From positions 1 to 28,187 of the forward strand of contig JAIRTG010000125.1 of NCBI GenBank assembly GCA_031255055.1: a DNA stretch of 28,187 nucleotides, read 5' to 3'. The stretch comes from Prevotellaceae bacterium. GTDB taxonomy: Bacteria; Bacteroidota; Bacteroidia; Bacteroidales; Paludibacteraceae. Below the pieces are notes generated by a model. It ran no database searches. It was given only the letters and a program-made list of their open reading frames with translations, and was not told the origin of the DNA. The translations under genes were made by a program, and so were the position numbers. How positions within the stretch are numbered: the first letter of the stretch is position 1; the number at the start of each line of letters is the position of its first letter. Positions 16,616 to 27,763 of the stretch are shown here, piece by piece.

Positions 16616-17524
16616 TTATTGAACAACCCCGATACGTAATTTAGCGCTTCGAGCGCGGGGATTCCGTGCAATTTCCTCCTCGCTCGCCCTCGCCGCCTTA
16701 CAAGTAAGCGCCTTGATCGGCGAGAGGACATTACCGTAAAAATCTTTTTCCAACTCGCCCTTAAAATTTCCGCTTCGGAAGAAATTCTTCACCAGTCGGT
16801 CTTCGAGCGAGTGATAGGTCAGCGCCACAATACGTCCGTTTTTAGCCGTCACATGCAAGCTTTGTTCGAGCAAATCGCGCAAAGCGTTCATTTCATCATT
16901 CACCTCCATTCTCAAAGCCTGAAACAATTGCGCCAATTCTTTTTTTTCTTTTTTTCTTTCGACAAACGGTTTCACCACATCAACAAATTCACTTGTATAC
17001 TCAATCGGCTTATCCGCACGTTTAGCCACCACCGCCTTCGCCAATCGGCGCGACTGACGCATTTCGCCGTACAAATAGAACACATCGGCCAATTTTTCTT
17101 CCGGATACGTATTCAACACATCAGCCGCCGTCAGCCTTGCCGCTCGATTCATTCTCATATCGGGCTTACCCTCAAAACGGAACGAGAACCCGCGTTCGGC
17201 CTCATCAAAATGATGCGACGAAACGCCCAAATCGGCCAGCAGCCCATCGATAGCCGTTATATTATGATACTTCAAAAAGTTTTTCAAATACCTGAAATTA
17301 CTTCTGACAAAGATCACCCGTTTATCATCCGGAACATTACTCATCGCATCCGCATCCTGATCAAAAGCGACCAGGACGCCCTTATCGTTCAGTTTATGAA
17401 GGATTTCCTTCGCGTGTCCACCTCCCCCAAAGGTAGCATCCACATAAACTCCGTCGGGTTTTATATTCAACCCATCAATTGTTTGGGCGAGCAATGCGGG
17501 AATATGATAAGCGCGTTCACTCAT
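16616..17524 (-). CDS. rsmH: 16S rRNA m4C1402 methyltransferase
   Basis: YVDATFGGGGH, FDQD, DLGVSSHH, RGFSF, DMRM, FQALRMEVN, YHSLEDRLVK, NPRARSAKLR. Overlaps the mraZ stop by 8 nt. Confidence 0.98.
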   Translation of the reverse strand: MSERAYHIPALLAQTIDGLNIKPDGVYVDATFGGGGHAKEILHKLNDKGVLVAFDQDADAMSNVPDDKRVIFVRSNFRYLKNFLKYHNITAIDGLLADLGVSSHHFDEAERGFSFRFEGKPDMRMNRAARLTAADVLNTYPEEKLADVFYLYGEMRQSRRLAKAVVAKRADKPIEYTSEFVDVVKPFVERKKEKKELAQLFQALRMEVNDEMNALRDLLEQSLHVTAKNGRIVALTYHSLEDRLVKNFFRSGNFKGELEKDFYGNVLSPIKALTCKAARASEEEIARNPRARSAKLRIGVVQ

Positions 17525-17984
17525 TATCGGATTTTTTCATACGTTTATTCAAATTATCGGAAAGTTTTTCGCGCGGCATTTTTATTTTTTCAAAATGCGC
17601 TTTACTCCACAGCGTAAACCGGTTTGCCATACCGATAAAAATCACCTCATTATCCTCCAAAAAAATAGATTCCTGTATTTTTTTCGGGAGCAGTATTCTA
17701 CCCTGCGAATCAATATCAAACCTATTCACATCCGCCATATAGTTCACCAAAGTTTCGTTATTATCCTCATTATCCCACTCATCCAATTGGTCGATAATTT
17801 TTTCCAATCGTTTATTCCACACCTCTTCCGGGAAAAAAACAAGACAATCCATTTTCAAATCTTTTTGCACCGAAATAGCCTCGCCATTCTCGGCAGAAAG
17901 CGCTTTTCGATAGCACGACGGAATAAAAACCCTACCTTTGGCATCCATCTTAGCTTCATATTTTCCGGTAAAAAACACGGCCAT
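17517..17984 (-). CDS. mraZ: Transcriptional regulator MraZ
   Basis: FTGKYEAKMDAKGRVFIP, second AbrB-like repeat DSQGRILLP, IGMANRFTLWS. Start moved from 18056 to ATG 17984. Confidence 0.95.
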   Translation of the reverse strand: MAVFFTGKYEAKMDAKGRVFIPSCYRKALSAENGEAISVQKDLKMDCLVFFPEEVWNKRLEKIIDQLDEWDNEDNNETLVNYMADVNRFDIDSQGRILLPKKIQESIFLEDNEVIFIGMANRFTLWSKAHFEKIKMPREKLSDNLNKRMKKSDNE

Positions 17985-18108: not shown

Positions 18109-18247
18109 TTATCAACAATTTATCCTCTTTCGATTTTTCGGCACAGGTATTATTTAATTCATTGATAAGTAAATATTTTAATGAGCGGACTATTTAACCG
18201 ATTCTTCGACAGCGCTAAAAAAGTGGGGAAAAGTGAAGTGTTGATAA
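18109..18247. promoter_or_regulatory. Inverted pair of DnaA-box-like 9-mers (TTATCAACA / TGTTGATAA)
   Basis: TTATCAACA at 18109-18117 and its exact reverse complement at 18239-18247; one mismatch to TTATCCACA. Confidence 0.4.
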
Positions 18248-18360
18248 CTTTTCCGCCTGAGATTTCCATTGCTCACACCATTAAACATCCGGCGAACATG
18301 CCGCGCCAAACAAAAAACACCTTCGGCCATTTTCCTTTAGAGAGAGAGAAAGATAATTAG

Positions 18361-18445
18361 GTGGGGGAAGTCTCCCCCTCGCTTCAGCCCGCCTGCGGCG
18401 GTCTTCCGCTACCCCCTCTGCGGGGCTCTGCCCCGCAACGCCCCG
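18361..18445 (+). repeat. REP-like GC-rich multi-hairpin element, copy A (GTGG head)
   Basis: GTGG-GGGAAGTCTCCCCCTCGCTTCAGCCCGCCTGCGGCGGTCTTCCGCTACCCCCTCTGCGGGGCTCTGCCCCGCAACGCCCCG; near-identical to three other copies in the window. Confidence 0.9.
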
Positions 18446-18533
18446 TCCCGGTACTCCATAGTCTCCCCTACCACTCTCCCCCCGATCAACAGCTACGCCT
18501 TGCACAGAGTGAGACAGAGTCGGCGGCAAGCGA

Positions 18534-18629
18534 GGATAAAAATCATCAAAACTTGGATAAAAATCATCCGAACTTGGGTAAAAATCATCCGAACTTGGAT
18601 AAAAATCATCAAAATTTGGGTAAAAATCA
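18534..18629. repeat. 21-bp tandem repeat, 4 units plus a partial unit (GG(A/G)TAAAAATCATC(A/C)(A/G)AA(C/T)TT)
   Basis: Units start at 18534, 18555, 18576, 18597, 18618. Confidence 0.92.
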
Positions 18630-18968
18630 GGGTAGGTACCCCAAAATTTAAGGGTAGGTACCCTAAAATTTAGGCTTGGTACCCCAAAATTTAAGGGTAT
18701 GTACCCTAAAAATCAGGCTTGGTACCCCAAAATTTAAGGGTAGGTACCCTAAAATTTAGGCTTGTTACCCCAAAATTTAAGGGTATGTACCCTAAAAATC
18801 AGGCTTGGTACCCCAAAATTTAAGGGTATGTACCCTAAAAATCAGGGTAGGTACCCCAAAATTTAAGGGTATGTACCCTTAAAAATCAAGGTATGTACCC
18901 TAAAAATCAGGCTTGGTACCCCAAATTTAAGGGTATGTACCCTAAAAATCAGGCTTGGTACCCCAAAA
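18630..18968. repeat. 16-unit 21/22-bp tandem array with a 43-bp higher-order period and a GTAC core
   Basis: Mostly alternating GGCTTGGTACCCCAAAATTTAA (22) and GGGTA(T/G)GTACCCTAAAA(ATC/TTT)A (21); GTAC at 18636, 18658, 18679, 18701, 18722 ... 18958 (one unit TTAC). Confidence 0.93.
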
Positions 18969-19052
18969 ACACGAATCATTAAACACAAATCATTGTTTAG
19001 AAAGCGATTTTAGCGCCATAAAAACAGCGAAGCCATCATCATTTTGCGAACC

Positions 19053-19084
19053 ATTGCAAAATAATAAAAATAAATGTACATTTG
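19053..19084 (+). promoter_or_regulatory. Bacteroidota promoter (-33 ATTG / -7 TACATTTG) for the T9SS cargo gene
   Basis: TACATTTG at 19077-19084, (A)TTG at 19053-19056, 20-nt spacer. Confidence 0.55.
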
Positions 19085-19467
19085 CAGAATCTCTACAAAA
19101 CGAAACAAACGTGAACCGATGACATACTATCATCAAAACAAAGATATAATTATTACGAAAAGCGCAACAGGCTATTTTGTCGTGTCAAATATCCTGTCAG
19201 ACACACAGATATACAGATACAAGTATACACTTGTCCTGCGTACGCACGCACGAAACACCCACACAGCGTCGTCCGCAGGCCATCTGCATAAAGACACACA
19301 CGCATTTGAGAACAAGACACCACTTTTAGCCCCCAAGCACATCAACAAAAAAAACGCGCTTCACCACACACTACAAGCGACTTCAAGTAACCCGACATAC
19401 ATCAAAACTTTCAACATAAATCATCAAAATAATTTGACAGATAACTAAAAACTAAATATATACGATT

Positions 19468-22400
19468 ATGAAAAGAATATTTTTATTATTAACAATCATC
19501 GTCTGCTTTTTTACGATCAACAAAGCAACGGCGCAACAACCGATAACGAGCGGTACAACCGGAGATTGTCAGTGGATGATCAACCTTCTTCCCACCGGTG
19601 ACTATCAGCTTGAAATCGTCTCCCTTTATGGGATCGAAGTCCTGATGGCGGATTACAATGATACCGACAACCTCGCCCCATGGTACACTTACAAGGGCTA
19701 CATTAAATCCCTGAAAATGTCCAACGTAATGAACATTGGAAATTTTGCTTTTGCCAATTGCACCGGCTTAACATCGGTCACCATCCCCCCTTCGGTGATA
19801 ACGATTGGAGAGCATGCTTTTGCCAATTGCACCGGCTTAGGAACGCTCACATTCGGAAATCTCGGCCGTTCGATAGCGATCATTGGAGACAAGGCTTTTT
19901 ACAGAACCGCCTTAACGTCGGTATCGATCGCAGATGAAACAACACTTGGAAACGCGGTTTTTGCCGATTGCCCCAACTTAACGAAAATTGAAGTTCTTTC
20001 TTCCAATCCCCAATACTCCGTTCAGGACGGCATACTGTTTAATAAACTAAAGGATACCCTGTTGCAATATCCCGCCGGTAAAACGACCACCGGTTATACC
20101 ATTCCCCTCAACGTGGCGACAATTGCAAACAGCGCTTTTGAAGGTAGCCGTCATTTAACATCGATCACGCTCGACGGAGTAATGACCATTGAAGAGGCGG
20201 CTTTTCGCAATTGCGACCACCTTACATCGCTCATCATCCCCGCTTTGGTAACGACGATTGGAGATCATGCTTTTGAAAATTGCTCCGACATAAAATCGAT
20301 AACCCTCAAGCCGACAATTCCTCCGGAGCTAGGTGTGGATGCTTTCAAGAATGTGTCTGCTGACGTGTTTGTTCACTGCAACACGGAATTCACCTATAAA
20401 GCAGCTCCGGGATGGAACAACCTCGGCGACAACCTCCCCTACATTGCGGATCCCTTCTATAAGATTACATTGAAAAGTTTCAACGACGACAATATGGAAT
20501 ATGGAAGAGTATTCGTGACATCAAGAGAGTACATCTGTTTGACCGCTCAGATCACCATTAAGGCAGAACCCAACGAGGGTTATGAATTTGCCGGGTGGAC
20601 AGACGACCTAACGGGGAGCGCGGAACGCACAGTGACGATCTCCGATAATGCGGTTTATCAGGCCATTTTTGTTAAGAAGAAGTATCTCGTAACGATAGCT
20701 TCAGCCAATACCGACATGGGACTCGTTGAAATTAAAGTCGGAGAAACCACATATCCTTCTTCCGGTAATGGTAGCGACTATGAGCAGGTATCTTTTGACA
20801 ATGGTACAGAAGTGACTGTCAGAGCAATAGCGAGATCGGGTTATAACTTTTTGTATTGGAACGACGGGAAAGACAAGCGCAACGATAAGGCAAATCCGCG
20901 CACCTTCACCATCACCAATGAGGATCTGAGTTTTATAGCCAACTTTGCGGATGGCGTTTATGTAATATCGGCATCTCAAGAGCTTTCGGGTCAGAACGAC
21001 TGGGGAACCGCTACCGTTGACGGAGTAGATGAAAAGAGTTATCGTTATGAGGAGAAAGCTACCCTTGAGGCGTTCCCCGCCTGGGACAAACTGTTTGTTG
21101 ATTGGGATGACGGCTCGCCGTATAATCCGCATGAAGTGACGGTCACAAGATCGCACCACTATACCGCCAATTTTGAACACCGCCGCTTTAAGATAAGGCT
21201 CAAGCTGAAAGAGGGTTGCGAGGGCATGGGAACGTTCTCCTCTTATAGTAATTCTTACGAGACAGACACAGACGGGGCGTATGTGTTTGTTTATTCGAGC
21301 GAAAGTTTTGGGTTTGAGGCGACAGCCACGGAAGGTAGTCGCTTTGTAAGATGGATAGAAATTGATGAGATACCTGCGCTGGCAGGACACGAATCATTCA
21401 AAGGCAAATCCGGGGATTCCGCATTAGAGAACATTCCTATGGATTCGATACTATTTGCGACATATCCGACGCTGACTTTTACGGCCGAGTTTCAGTCGGA
21501 TCACAATGTATACACCTACCAATTGAAAGGGCAAGAGGATCGGGGAGACGTTACGGTTATGAACAAAGAGACGGGAAAAGAACAAAATATCTTTGTACAC
21601 GGTGGGACGGCTCTAATTTTAGCGAAGCCCTCCGGCGGTTATAAGTTTATGCGATGGAATGACGGTAATCCGGGCGGCGTTCCTCCGCACGATCTGGGCA
21701 TTCAGCGCGATGTTATAGTCACGCGGGATACGTCTTTTCTTGCCCGCTTTGCGGCAGAGAACGCAGAACTCCATTGGCTGGAGTTCACGCCGAAGATTGT
21801 CGCTGGGGGAATCTATAGCACAGGTGGGGGAACCTTTAGAGGTGCAAATGGGGATATTACGGATCCGGAGGATATATATTGCGGTACGGGAATGTATGCG
21901 GAAGGGGAAGAGTTTTGGATTTTAGCAAACCCCGACCAAGGTAATAAATTTGTGCGATGGAACGAAGACGGCAATCTAGAAGAAGATCGTTATATTCGCG
22001 CGGGATACGATGACCAATGGAATAAGACGAGTAGTGCGTATTATACGGCCATATTTGTGGAGAACAATGTTAGTACCTGTATGATAAAGACCCCGACGAA
22101 GAAAATAGGGAACACGGATGAACTGGAATGGGGAACGATTACCGGCGGCGGACGGTATGCGGTGGGTGAGACAGTTAAGCTGGAGGCAAAGCCCGTCTAT
22201 GCTGGTGATATCTTTGTGGGATGGGACGACGACAACGACAACAAAATCAACAACACCGACAACCCGCGTACATTTGTGATTAGCGCTGACATGGGGGGAA
22301 AGGAAAAAACGTATACGGCCGTGTTTGCCAATCAGATTCGCGTAGCGCTCTATCCGGGGGATTTTGCTACCGGCAAATATTGTCACCAAGAGGATGAATA

Positions 22401-24375
22401 CATTGATACCGAACAATATTGTGAATATGGAGACGTTGTCGTCGAGGTCGGCGGAGGCATCGCACCACCGAATGAATTTTATCCCTACGGGACGGTGCTG
22501 AAGATTAAGCCGAATCCCAGCCACCCCAGTTGTAATTTTGTGCAATGGAGCGACGGCAATAAGGATAATCCGCGCACGGTTACCATCACGCAGGATACGC
22601 TTTTTGTGGCGCAGTTTGAGCAGATCAAACATACAATAACTCTTAACGCAAACGATCCAACGCTGGGAACCGTTGGCATTATAAGAGCAACCAATGGGGG
22701 GGGGCCGGATGACAACTACGTTGTAGGAGCATCCTCTTATGAGGTTCTCTACGGGGATTTGATAAGTATTGTTGCCGATGCACTCGGCAATCGATTTGTG
22801 CGTTGGGAAGACAACGTCAACGGCAACGTAACGGGCGACGCCGACAACACGTCGCCGATACGCAAGATTAAGGTCGATAAGGATATCACTTTTAAGGCAG
22901 TGTTTGCTAAGGAAAGTTATACCGTAACGGTCGCATCAAATAATGCAGTCTGGGGAAGCGCCTACTTTCCCGAGTGCGGCGTCGCCTGCACAGAAATGAC
23001 TTGTGCCACCGGCGAGGATGTTAAAGTTGCGACACTACCCAAGGAAGGTTATGCATTTCGGCTATGGTGGGAAGGAACAGTGGGGGATAAGAACAACAGC
23101 ATCGAAAGGTGCATGACGGGGGACTGTGTGATTACTGTCGATCATAGCATGACTTTGTGGGCGGAGTTTCAGCCGCAAGCGCAAGAACATGAACTCAAGA
23201 TCCGCTCAACCTTTGGAAGCATTGTCGTAACCTCCGACGGAAAAACATTAAACCCATCAAAAGAAGGAGAGGTATATAAATATAACATTCTCCACGGCAC
23301 GGAGATTCAGATGCAGGTAACGGGCATGGAGGATCTCCCCTTTAAGTGTGAGGGATGGGACGACAACGGAGACGGCCTTGTCGATAACTCGAATAACCCG
23401 CGCAAGATGATCGTCAATCGGTCGATGACCGTTGAGGCCATATTTCCCGTATATACGCTGGAGGTAATATCAAACAATCCCAATTGGGGCTGGGTCTCCC
23501 TCACGCCCGAAGGCCCTTACAAACACGGTACGAAGGTTGAGATGGTGGCTAACGCCATCGGCGGTTATCACCTTAGCGAATGGAGTGACACCAAAACCAA
23601 CGAGACTCCACGCACGATTACTATGACAAAAAATGAAAAGATCAATGCCACTTTTGCGAGCAATACAGCTCTGATCTATAAGTTGAAGGTCGAATCGGAT
23701 CATCCTGAATGGGGCACGGTCGGCATCAACCCCCAAAACCCTTTATACCACTATGAGGAGCAGGTTGTGCTTACGCCGACGGCCAAGGATGGCTATCGCT
23801 TTTTGAGATGGCTCGGCGATACCGGCGATACACAGAATCCGCGCCCGGTTAGCGTACAAGGGAATATGGCTTTTACGGCCAGTTTTATTGTGGATACGGA
23901 GCCAACTTATCTGATAGTCGCAAGACCTAACAATGCCGCTCGTGGAATCGTTGACGGAGGAGGAACGTATTACGCAGATACGCAGGTAGAGCTTAGGGCT
24001 ACTCCTTTTCCCGGTTATTACTTCAGTCGATGGACGGATAACAACAAGGATATGTCGCGCCGGATTACCGTAAGCAGAGATATGACTTATATTGCCGTCT
24101 TTGAGGAAGGGGAGGGCGATACGCCGGAGAACCCGATACCGTTCGACCCGACGGTGGTTGTCTATCCCAATCCGGTGCGGGATGTATTGTATATTCGGTC
24201 GGCCGCAGCGGTAGAACAGGTAGTCATCCTTACTCTGAGCGGTCAACTGGTGAAGCAGATCGCCTCGCCCACCGACAAGGAAATCGACGTAAGAGATTTG
24301 GCAAAGGGTGTGTATCTTGTCAGGGTAAAGACGGCAATCGATGAAACAATGCTGAAGATAGTGATTAGCGATTAA
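19468..24375 (+). CDS. T9SS-secreted BspA-like surface protein: signal peptide, ~7-8 LRR_5 (TpLRR) units, ~14 divergent InlB B-repeat-like domains, T9SS CTD
   Basis: Sec signal MKRIFLLLTIIVCFFTINKATA; IGxxAFxNCxxLTSVTIP repeats; 14 repeats of AxPxxGYxFxxWxD...NPRxxTxxxDxxxxAxF; C-terminal VYPNPVRDVLYI...G.LV...IDVRDLAKGVYLVRV...KIVI typical of type-A T9SS CTDs. Confidence 0.88.
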   Translation: MKRIFLLLTIIVCFFTINKATAQQPITSGTTGDCQWMINLLPTGDYQLEIVSLYGIEVLMADYNDTDNLAPWYTYKGYIKSLKMSNVMNIGNFAFANCTGLTSVTIPPSVITIGEHAFANCTGLGTLTFGNLGRSIAIIGDKAFYRTALTSVSIADETTLGNAVFADCPNLTKIEVLSSNPQYSVQDGILFNKLKDTLLQYPAGKTTTGYTIPLNVATIANSAFEGSRHLTSITLDGVMTIEEAAFRNCDHLTSLIIPALVTTIGDHAFENCSDIKSITLKPTIPPELGVDAFKNVSADVFVHCNTEFTYKAAPGWNNLGDNLPYIADPFYKITLKSFNDDNMEYGRVFVTSREYICLTAQITIKAEPNEGYEFAGWTDDLTGSAERTVTISDNAVYQAIFVKKKYLVTIASANTDMGLVEIKVGETTYPSSGNGSDYEQVSFDNGTEVTVRAIARSGYNFLYWNDGKDKRNDKANPRTFTITNEDLSFIANFADGVYVISASQELSGQNDWGTATVDGVDEKSYRYEEKATLEAFPAWDKLFVDWDDGSPYNPHEVTVTRSHHYTANFEHRRFKIRLKLKEGCEGMGTFSSYSNSYETDTDGAYVFVYSSESFGFEATATEGSRFVRWIEIDEIPALAGHESFKGKSGDSALENIPMDSILFATYPTLTFTAEFQSDHNVYTYQLKGQEDRGDVTVMNKETGKEQNIFVHGGTALILAKPSGGYKFMRWNDGNPGGVPPHDLGIQRDVIVTRDTSFLARFAAENAELHWLEFTPKIVAGGIYSTGGGTFRGANGDITDPEDIYCGTGMYAEGEEFWILANPDQGNKFVRWNEDGNLEEDRYIRAGYDDQWNKTSSAYYTAIFVENNVSTCMIKTPTKKIGNTDELEWGTITGGGRYAVGETVKLEAKPVYAGDIFVGWDDDNDNKINNTDNPRTFVISADMGGKEKTYTAVFANQIRVALYPGDFATGKYCHQEDEYIDTEQYCEYGDVVVEVGGGIAPPNEFYPYGTVLKIKPNPSHPSCNFVQWSDGNKDNPRTVTITQDTLFVAQFEQIKHTITLNANDPTLGTVGIIRATNGGGPDDNYVVGASSYEVLYGDLISIVADALGNRFVRWEDNVNGNVTGDADNTSPIRKIKVDKDITFKAVFAKESYTVTVASNNAVWGSAYFPECGVACTEMTCATGEDVKVATLPKEGYAFRLWWEGTVGDKNNSIERCMTGDCVITVDHSMTLWAEFQPQAQEHELKIRSTFGSIVVTSDGKTLNPSKEGEVYKYNILHGTEIQMQVTGMEDLPFKCEGWDDNGDGLVDNSNNPRKMIVNRSMTVEAIFPVYTLEVISNNPNWGWVSLTPEGPYKHGTKVEMVANAIGGYHLSEWSDTKTNETPRTITMTKNEKINATFASNTALIYKLKVESDHPEWGTVGINPQNPLYHYEEQVVLTPTAKDGYRFLRWLGDTGDTQNPRPVSVQGNMAFTASFIVDTEPTYLIVARPNNAARGIVDGGGTYYADTQVELRATPFPGYYFSRWTDNNKDMSRRITVSRDMTYIAVFEEGEGDTPENPIPFDPTVVVYPNPVRDVLYIRSAAAVEQVVILTLSGQLVKQIASPTDKEIDVRDLAKGVYLVRVKTAIDETMLKIVISD

Positions 24376-24429
24376 TGGTTAGTGATGAACGTTTGGTTGT
24401 TAGTGACGAACGTTTTGTGTTATAGTGAT

Positions 24430-24465
24430 AAGCCGGCTCTAATGATGATGGGGCCGGTTTTTTTT
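24430..24465 (+). terminator. Probable Rho-independent terminator of the T9SS cargo gene
   Basis: AAGCCGGCTC / GGGCCGGTTT stem (with G-U pairs) followed by a T8 run, ~55 bp after the stop. Confidence 0.6.
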
Positions 24466-24639
24466 GTGTCCTTTTTTGTGTCCATTGTGTGAACTGTGAT
24501 GCTCTCCTCTGCCCCTCTCTCAGAAGGAGGCTGTGTGAAAATTAAGAATTGATGTTTTTTTCCTGGTATACCTGTCTGAGAATTTTTTCAAATATGAGAT
24601 TCTCAGAGTGTCTATTTTTGTTTTGACGCAGCCTACGAA

Positions 24640-24666
24640 GGGTGGGGTGGGAGGGGTGTCGGGGGG
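24640..24666 (+). other. Canonical G-quadruplex-forming motif
   Basis: GGG-T-GGGG-T-GGG-A-GGGG-TGTC-GGGGGG: five G-runs of 3 or more, three 1-nt loops. Confidence 0.7.
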
Positions 24667-24682
24667 AGCATGGTGTGCCGGA

Positions 24683-24772
24683 CGGGGCGTTGCGGGGCAG
24701 AGCCCCGCTGAGGGGGTAGCGGAAGACCGCCAACGGCGGGCTGAAGCGAGGGGGAGACTTCCCCCCCCCCAC
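24683..24772 (-). repeat. REP-like element, copy B (GTGG head), inverted relative to copy A
   Basis: Reverse complement reads GTGG-G(n)AAGTCTCCCCCTCGCTTCAGCCCGCCGTTGGCGGTCTTCCGCTACCCCCTCAGCGGGGCTCTGCCCCGCAACGCCCCG. Confidence 0.9.
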
Positions 24773-27530: not shown

Positions 27531-27618
27531 GTAGGGGGGGGGAAGTCTCCCCCTCGCTTCAGCCCGCTGCGCGGTCTTCCGCTACCCCCTCTGCGGGGCG
27601 CTGCCCCGCAACGCCCCG
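27531..27618 (+). repeat. REP-like element, copy C (GTAG head)
   Basis: GTAG-G(n)AAGTCTCCCCCTCGCTTCAGCCCGCTGCGCGGTCTTCCGCTACCCCCTCTGCGGGGCGCTGCCCCGCAACGCCCCG. Confidence 0.9.
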
Positions 27619-27763
27619 TAAGACAGTGTTTATAGTGATTCGTGTTTAGTGATTAGTGGTTAAATGGTGATTAAATAGTGATGCGTGTTTAGTGATTCGT
27701 GATGAAATAGTGATTCGTGATTTGTGTTTAATGATTAGCAAGTTCGCCGTGTTTGACAATTCT

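Follow-up and report, generated by a model that had tools for sequence, protein, structure and literature searches.

Why should a long array of phased, palindromic repeats stand beside a cell-division operon? This question is raised by contig JAIRTG010000125.1 of a Prevotellaceae bacterium (GenBank assembly GCA_031255055.1), in which 16 tandem units of 21 or 22 bp lie between mraZ, the first gene of the division and cell wall (dcw) cluster, and a gene for a BspA-type surface protein carrying a sorting domain of the type IX secretion system (T9SS). We analysed 28,187 nucleotides of this contig (positions 1 to 28,187, hereafter the window) together with the rest of the assembly, which derives from a termite-gut metagenome, comprises 2.12 Mb in 250 contigs and is 82% complete. 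Contigs are given as C-numbers, the window being C99. A preliminary description, made from the sequence by itself, had suggested a protein-loading or DNA-bending platform, or a methylation-sensitive regulatory array. Our analysis favors a different answer, to which we assign a probability of roughly 0.65: the array makes up the inner, minisatellite part of a one-ended, mosaic, dispersed non-coding repeat that resembles BrickBuilt and the bacterial interspersed mosaic elements (BIMEs), is selfish or neutral, and has grown by slippage.

The array consists of contiguous 21- and 22-bp units

We analysed the array at 18621-18969 with Tandem Repeats Finder (TRF), which reported a period of 43 bp with 8.1 copies and 88% matches. 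A cleaner stretch at 18621-18888 gave 6.2 copies of the same period with 92% matches and a score of 450, and additional TRF rows at periods 86 and 129 indicate a still higher-order structure. When the units were delimited by cutting at a (G/T)TACCC anchor, we obtained 16 units, each of 21 or 22 bp. GTAC is present in 15 of these and GGTACC in nine, and each unit carries an A-tract, which is A4 or A5 in 15 units and A3 in the remaining one. The spacings from one GTAC to the next are 22, 21, 22, 21, 22, 43, 21, 22, 21, 22, 22, 21, 21 and 21 bp. The unit count, the 43-bp repeat, the GTAC and GGTACC content and the A-tracts all agree with the preliminary description. Its exclusion of CRISPR also holds, given that the units are contiguous and have no spacers; the open reading frames (ORFs) that cross the array match no family.

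The symmetry of the units differs from what had been reported. The term 'GTAC-centred palindrome' is correct for the GGTACC hexamer only. A longer dyad, AGGGTA-nn-TACCCT with 6-bp arms, is found in eight units and is centred on a GG/TG dinucleotide instead, and six GGCTTGGTACCCC units retain just the short dyad. Moreover, the near-palindromic type had been assigned to the 21-bp subunit, but by the anchor cut it is mostly the 22-mer.

The preliminary description had not linked the array with the features that adjoin it on the left, namely a second 21-bp array at 18534-18629 and a GC-rich module at 18355-18447. The two arrays have a TAAAAATCA core in common, and one or two units of the left-hand motif are also found near elements on C108 and C189.

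A composite repeat element recurs throughout the genome

We found that modules and arrays of this kind are organized into a composite element that is non-coding and intergenic and occurs roughly 150 times in the genome. Read inward, the canonical element consists of a GA-rich flank, the module, a (TAGTGAT)n heptamer arm, zero to three central arrays, an (ATCACTA)n arm, the inverted module and a second GA-rich flank. The central arrays mostly have periods of 21-23 or 42 bp, and their sequence is specific to each element. In 20 close module pairs of the order plus then minus, the interiors (117-1430 bp) contain arrays only. Long intervals of the order minus then plus, of which there are 75, hold genes, and no gene recurs inside the long module pairs.

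A genome-wide TRF search returned 425 arrays, which make up 2.4% of the genome. Their periods include 7 (137 arrays), 14 (24), 21 (67), 22 (14), 23 (22) and 42 bp (10). In total, 252 of these arrays have a module no more than 300 bp away, in zones that make up only 8.5% of the genome. Tandem arrays are probably also the reason why the assembly breaks into 250 contigs.

Because this architecture is seen genome-wide, the array at 18621-18969 can be read as the interior of a composite element that lacks its right-hand module and its left heptamer arm. Directly to its right are four heptamer-type units, which share a 19-nt match with the heptamer region at 27718-27736 in the window. By this likeness and by the canonical layout of the element, the four units are the leftover of a reverse-orientation heptamer arm whose module is missing.

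The heptamer is also found outside composite elements. The single gene of the IVP/S23p family of four-helix bundles (PF05635) in the genome, at C171:8603-8905 on the minus strand and with one in-frame TGA, is flanked (C171:8314-8975) by 38 copies of TAGTGAT/TAGTGTT on one side and seven reverse-complement heptamers on the other. The arms of the composite element are built from the same heptamer. In addition, 392 kb of sequence sampled from relatives that lack the module, for the most part a single complete genome of the same family, contain many 7/8-bp arrays, including AGTGATT with 10.6 copies, and 21-bp arrays of up to 18.7 copies. These arrays in module-free relatives suggest that the array habit is older and wider than the module.

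The unit family varies between loci and is absent from relatives

Outside the window, relatives of the 43-bp array were detected by genome-wide BLAST at only two places. At C108:1-515, a 22-bp period is repeated at least 23.7 times and is cut by the contig end, and at C54:115-256 there are 6.7 copies. Both arrays abut the inner end of a module with a minor extension, GTCCGGTAC(T/G)CC(A), as is seen after module copy A in the window. This extension is present in about 10 of about 309 modules, copy B of the window among them. Since it stands beside the array at all three loci, the GGTACC unit family appears to travel with one module subfamily. The array can thus hardly be a device specific to its locus, the same unit family being found twice more beside a dispersed module. 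Copy number within the family (6.7, 16 and at least 23.7) differs more than threefold between loci. This is the free length variation that the preliminary description had named as the sign of a neutral minisatellite, here seen between paralogous loci. A scan of metagenome contigs with a unit 17-mer gave 24 single, chance-like matches and no array.

We also compared the region upstream of mraZ in 22 relatives of the same family. The gap there measures 113-654 bp and contains only boxes of 10-11 bp of the GTGGG type, which we infer to be the expected MraZ operators. Since an array like that at 18621-18969 was found in none of the 22, it would be a lineage-specific insertion or expansion.

A separate observation concerns the same-family relative G034, which carries upstream of mraZ (positions 2378-2453 of locus L090) a 22-bp palindromic array of its own, with 3.5 copies and a AAAAGGAACGTTCC core. 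It represents a second, independent instance of such a repeat at such a site.

Unrelated unit families keep short hairpins

Across the genome, 89 arrays of 20-24 bp fall into 43 unrelated unit families, each present at one to nine loci, and the majority of these arrays are neighbors of module copies. A perfect stem of at least 5 bp is found in 39% of the units, compared to 10% of shuffled units. In paralogous arrays, the palindromes are kept by changes on both sides, as in GGAGCATGCTCC versus GGATCGTGATCC and in AAGAAAT..ATTTCTT versus AGGAAAC..TTTCCT. We also considered whether the 21-mers are decayed triplets of the heptamer and rejected this, their lag-7 identity being 0.24 against 0.25 in shuffles.

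These data bear on the proposed protein-loading platform, in which protein dimers would coat the dyad units along one face of the DNA, as an iteron, a centromere-like site or a nucleoid-organizing array. Contiguous, dyad-symmetric units of two helical turns are indeed what plasmid iterons and type II parC sites consist of, and palindromic units are enriched genome-wide. However, no single sequence-specific protein fits 43 unrelated families at 89 chromosomal loci, and arms that co-vary between paralogous arrays are unusual for a protein half-site. There is no rep, par (parM/parR or parA/parB), toxin or cas gene beside the array, whose neighbors are mraZ and the BspA-like gene, and the 22 relatives have no such array at this locus. 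We therefore give a dedicated platform little chance.

Alternatively, the array could be transcribed into a hairpin-repeat RNA, for instance one resembling a type III antitoxin or another processed repeat RNA. Each unit could form a hairpin of 5-6 bp, the minus strand has seven weak sites of a hairpin plus T-run where 1.8 are expected, and heptamer repeats of other bacteria are reported to be mostly transcribed (PMC4692102). Yet there is no ORF of the ToxN/AbiQ type, and the sole ORF ahead of the BspA-like gene looks spurious (see below). We found no promoter upstream of the array and no match to an Rfam family, and no RNA run is listed with the stretch, although the latter is weak evidence. 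Taken together, an RNA product seems very unlikely.

The array is predicted to be strongly curved

To describe the shape of the array, we used the Bolshoy-Trifonov wedge model, under which a phased-A6 control has an end-to-end to contour ratio of 0.33. The ratio of the array is 0.62 over 126 bp, compared to 0.94 ± 0.025 for random genomic DNA. Arrays of shuffled units reach this curvature in only 0.5% of cases, and the median ratio of the other 20-24-bp arrays is 0.91. DNA bending by A-tracts phased over two turns, as had been proposed, is thus borne out by a strong curvature predicted in silico.

The array had been placed between the promoters of the dcw cluster and of a T9SS gene, about 85 bp ahead of the latter. 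On the left, mraZ and the dcw cluster are in place, whereas the gene on the right encodes a leucine-rich repeat (LRR) protein of the BspA type that is a cargo of the T9SS and not one of its components. A putative -7 box is present on this side, but at a distance of about 110 bp from the array.

A curved-DNA or contingency array might tune transcription of the BspA-like gene, with gain and loss of units creating heritable variants in surface-protein expression. The predicted curvature is far beyond the genomic range, the array ends about 110 bp before a putative Bacteroidetes -7 box, the downstream gene encodes a surface-exposed T9SS cargo, and copy number is very different between paralogous loci. 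Furthermore, BrickBuilt segments have promoter activity, and several copies stand beside genes with a T9SS C-terminal domain (PMC4596501). Against this, 2 of 16 T9SS-cargo genes have a module in the 800 bp upstream of them, compared to a background of 7%, which is no enrichment, and elements occur next to gene 3' ends no less often than next to 5' ends. Most other 20-24-bp arrays lack predicted curvature, as their median shows, and no strain variation can be observed at a locus present in one DNA run with contigs broken in the array. We consider such tuning unlikely, while noting that it has more in its favor than an RNA or a platform.

The suggestion of a methylation-sensitive array was assessed by counting sites. 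In a GTAC switch, the methylation state of the 15 sites, set by a GTAC methyltransferase, would control the neighboring promoters. The 349 bp of the array would contain 0.93 GTAC at the genome-wide density, against 15 observed; however, this enrichment follows simply from amplifying one unit, and other arrays of the class have other cores. Under a second-order Markov model, the genome-wide observed-to-expected ratio (O/E) of GTAC is 0.93. Avoidance as a trace of a GTAC restriction-modification system is thus absent, in contrast to CTAG (O/E 0.06; 122 observed, 2111 expected), GATC (0.46) and GAATTC (0.37), whose genome-wide depletion suggests active restriction systems against these sites. A GTAC switch is barely credible on these numbers.

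The module is a structured element shared with other phyla

We next characterized the module that bounds the composite element. Near-full copies of about 90 bp number 313 and are spread over 187 of the 250 contigs; for 169 of them the nearest contig end is no more than 300 bp away, and four are in the window (copies A to D in the table). A module faces the 3' end of a gene in 154 cases (median distance 100 bp) and a 5' end in 121 (median distance 204 bp; p = 0.05). A mild 3'-end bias of this kind is expected for elements that are tolerated wherever promoters stay intact. No copy of the module was found in 30 relatives of the same family and order.

An exact 26-mer of the module occurs in more than 38 contigs of other phyla among the matches listed. 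The hosts among these matches are many Treponema isolates and metagenome-assembled genomes (MAGs), Fibrobacter and other Fibrobacterota, Leptospira haakeii, and one rumen Bacteroidales MAG. With a covariance model (CM), R1, which yields lower bounds as 150 candidates were scored per genome, we counted at least 43 copies in T. bryantii NK4A124, 57 in Treponema sp. JC4, 67 in a rumen Treponema MAG, 67 in an F. succinogenes MAG and 5 in L. haakeii. Copies in other phyla are intergenic, in either orientation, and have no neighbor gene in common. A minority of the Treponema and Fibrobacter copies are flanked by short heptamer arrays of other sequences.

In the R1 alignment of 66 sequences from across phyla, 10 of the 14 predicted pairs show two-sided compensatory changes, and one-sided G-U changes are almost absent. 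A third hairpin (P3) could not be aligned in one register by MAFFT or the CM, and its covariation was followed by eye: GCGGGG/CCCCGC, CTAGGGG/CCCCTAG and ACGGGGG/CCCCCGT. Both variable hairpins accept inserts of 20-60 nt, and the junction sequences are near-identical among Treponema, Fibrobacter and other Fibrobacterota, Leptospira haakeii and Bacteroidales. Since pairs change in a compensatory manner, the alignment argues that the module is a real structured element of three helices, and the scarcity of wobble pairs hints that it folds as DNA. Rfam 15 gave no gathering-level match in the whole window; at the E-value level, nothing credible was found in 18300-18560, where the best match was traJ-II with 17.8 bits against a cut-off of 40 bits. 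Neither the module sequence nor repeats of Bacteroidales from termite guts came up in a search of the literature.

The module is also abundant in the source community. In one DNA run, summed contig depth over the module (window positions 18304-18495) is about 59000, compared to 18 for flanking unique DNA, or about 3000 times the depth of the organism itself. Two further termite-gut runs, from which this organism is absent, also contain the module. Since its depth so far exceeds that of the organism, these data suggest that the module has spread horizontally among gut bacteria.

We further noted tandem repeats of 74-76 bp that consist of the GA-rich flank and the first half of the module, for example at C157:8230-8427, C110:6594-6805 and C171:135-330. 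Their match to the full module stops right after GGTCTTCC, which gives the impression that copying began anew at this point.

Other features of the window

The coordinates of the features are collected in the table.

Table 1 Features of the array locus and of related repeats in the window
Feature	Position	Strand	Basis or remark
mraZ, first gene of the dcw cluster (context, outside the element)	17517-17984	minus	Pfam MraZ, E = 7e-20
GA-rich outer flank of module, AGAGA/GAAAGA type	18330-18354	plus	similar GA-rich stretch before most module copies
GC-rich structured module copy A, inner end towards arrays	18355-18447	plus	CM R1, 92.7 bits
Minor-subfamily inner extension with spacer, starting with GTCCCGGTACTCCAT	18448-18533	plus	extension in about 10 copies
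Left-hand 21-bp tandem array, 4.6 copies	18534-18629	.	TRF score 143
Main array, 16 units of 21/22 bp, 43-bp higher-order repeat	18621-18969	.	TRF and unit cutting
Four heptamer-type units	18967-18994	minus	AATGATT TGTGTTT AATGATT CGTGTTT; TRF period 14, 2 copies
Putative Bacteroidetes-type promoter, -7 box TACATTTG at 19077-19084	19045-19084	plus	match to consensus pattern only
BspA-type LRR surface protein, 1635 aa, T9SS C-terminal sorting domain	19468-24375	plus	Pfam LRR_5, Flg_new_2, Por_Secre_tail
Module copy B, minor subfamily like A, facing A across the BspA-like gene	24680-24768	minus	similarity and CM
Complete composite element: module C (+) 27535-27620, heptamer-type array, 14/21-bp arrays, module D (-) 27963-28049	27535-28049	.	
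Further 21-bp array, at least 5.7 copies, runs past the window end	28069-28187	.	TRF

An in-frame Met at 17984 gives an MraZ of 155 aa. About 240 bp upstream of mraZ and outside the element, near 18225-18245, GTGGGG is followed by GTGAA and GTGTT. These are probably the MraZ operator, as they resemble the 10-11-bp direct repeats of the GTGGG type in relatives. The ORF at 19074-19448 (124 aa) has no Pfam match, is not protein-like in sequence and starts ahead of the -7 box, and is probably not a gene. Instead, 19090-19467 seems to be a leader of about 380 nt that would follow the putative -7 box of the BspA-like gene. Just two inward-facing plus-minus pairs in the genome have genes between their modules, and A/B (18355-24768) is one of them; either an element received the BspA-like gene in its interior, or a rearrangement joined two half-elements. 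The unit family of the array at the window end comprises seven arrays at about five loci in the genome.

Discussion

Our data are most readily explained by a dispersed, non-coding element whose interior happens to be repetitive. Units would be gained and lost through replication slippage or unequal recombination, which the short hairpin in each unit may favor. Correction of quasi-palindromes would also account for the compensatory changes, and whole elements or parts of them would be copied between intergenic sites. The array itself would have no dedicated function. Its curvature would be incidental, since a period of two helical turns combined with one A-tract per unit is sufficient to produce it. 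A curved array may nonetheless influence the BspA-like promoter about 110 bp away, again incidentally, given the curvature that is predicted.

Several observations weigh against this explanation. Searches of the genome with PF01609, PF01797 and PF07282 revealed no transposase, REP-associated tyrosine transposase (RAYT) or TnpB able to move the element. For RAYT (PF01797), there were no matches in the 82%-complete genome, while positive controls were found in 6 of 14 genomes. For a parent insertion sequence (IS) of the IS4/IS5 DDE type (PF01609), there was no more than a DDE fragment of 82 aa, located where a contig ends, and ISs often remain unassembled in MAGs. At 16 complete pairs, the outer flanks grade into GA-rich simple repeats with no recognizable direct repeat, so that no target-site duplication is visible. 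With neither a mobilizing enzyme nor such a duplication, the mobility of the element is deduced from its multi-locus distribution alone. Among public reads, only one DNA run contains the locus, at about 18x, with contigs that stop inside the array, which precludes a strain-level comparison. Moreover, the sharp preference for 21 bp in unrelated sequences does not stem from decayed heptamers, nor is it predicted by plain slippage. The kept palindromes could reflect selection and not mutational bias, and with curvature predicted beside a promoter, a genuine effect on regulation is conceivable.

Some of these points would be met by a bolder reading, in which the arrays of 21-23-bp hairpin units, the heptamer arms and the three-helix module form one undescribed repeat-building system. 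Here, a structure-specific enzyme or nucleoprotein with a ruler of two helical turns, rather than passive slippage, would lay down or amplify the units. The scarcity of G-U/G-T pairs in the module would then suggest that DNA is recognized in a folded form, either single-stranded or cruciform. We regard such a system as unlikely; it stays alive because the two-turn period of unrelated units is unexplained, their hairpins are maintained and the module crosses phyla.

For the locus, the selfish or neutral element is a deflationary answer, and nothing indicates an origin, a centromere or an epigenetic switch beside the cell-division operon. For the genome, the array families number in the dozens yet for the most part retain a two-turn period and a hairpin within the unit, and the module beside them is in part near-identical across three bacterial phyla from gut habitats. 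What is new is that 21-22-bp minisatellites are tied to a module that Treponema, Fibrobacter and Leptospira have as well, and to heptamer arrays of the kind seen on both sides of the IVP gene. These sequences give concrete handles for finding the protein or process that builds the elements. The elements could further be used as variable-number tandem repeat (VNTR) markers, and they call for caution in the assembly and annotation of MAGs.

Comparison with known repeat systems

Plasmid iterons and type II parC sites are contiguous direct repeats of about 20-22 bp with dyad symmetry, phased on one face of the DNA. Unlike these, the array described here is chromosomal, has no adjacent rep or par gene and belongs to a set of dozens of unrelated unit families. 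The mycobacterial interspersed repetitive units (MIRU-VNTR) of Mycobacterium and the BOX elements of Streptococcus pneumoniae are interspersed intergenic repeats with a variable tandem internal module and units of 40-100 bp. Each has a single unit family, and neither is known to have a GC-rich terminal module.

A closer likeness is found in the repetitive extragenic palindromes of Proteobacteria (REP, with BIME and REPIN), which are also abundant intergenic hairpin modules with inverted pairs, mosaics and a mild 3'-end bias. In contrast to these, the module here is about 90 nt long with three helices, not a single palindrome of 20-40 nt, the pairs enclose long tandem arrays, and no RAYT was found. 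The four bases before the G-run of the module vary freely among copies from other phyla; unlike REP, it thus has no conserved GTAG head.

Heptamer repeats, such as the short tandemly repeated repetitive (STRR) sequences of cyanobacteria, GGGAATC of Xanthomonas and GGGGAYT of Nostoc, are a known but unexplained class (Rehm et al. 2015, PMC4692102). The 137 heptamer arrays of this genome are similar in being dispersed, tandem and mostly between genes. They differ from the Xanthomonas and Nostoc heptamers in not being G-rich, and the main array has units of 21/22 bp without lag-7 self-similarity.

The BrickBuilt, MITEPgRS and MITE464 elements of Porphyromonas gingivalis are spacer-less minisatellites of 23 or 41 nt within intergenic, multi-copy and often one-ended MITEs (miniature inverted-repeat transposable elements; Klein et al. 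2015, PMC4596501). BrickBuilt comprises a single unit family, 19 copies, a non-repetitive leader and tail, and IS5-like terminal inverted repeats (TIRs) of 12 nt (PMC4596501). As in BrickBuilt, we see a spacer-less array in a non-coding intergenic element that is multi-copy, lineage-restricted and hosted by a member of the Bacteroidales; its inverted ends are seen in 20 complete pairs elsewhere in the genome. Just as many BrickBuilt copies lack one end, this locus has only its left module and a heptamer remnant on the right. Unlike BrickBuilt, there are 43 unit families, about 150 elements, structured GC-rich ends of about 90 bp and heptamer arms, and the five published 12-nt TIRs of BrickBuilt have no occurrence in the genome, so that membership fails at the sequence level. 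In conclusion, BrickBuilt with MITEPgRS is the closest published analogue, and in the composite element described here three poorly understood repeat classes are physically joined: BrickBuilt-like minisatellites, heptamer repeats and REP-like structured modules.

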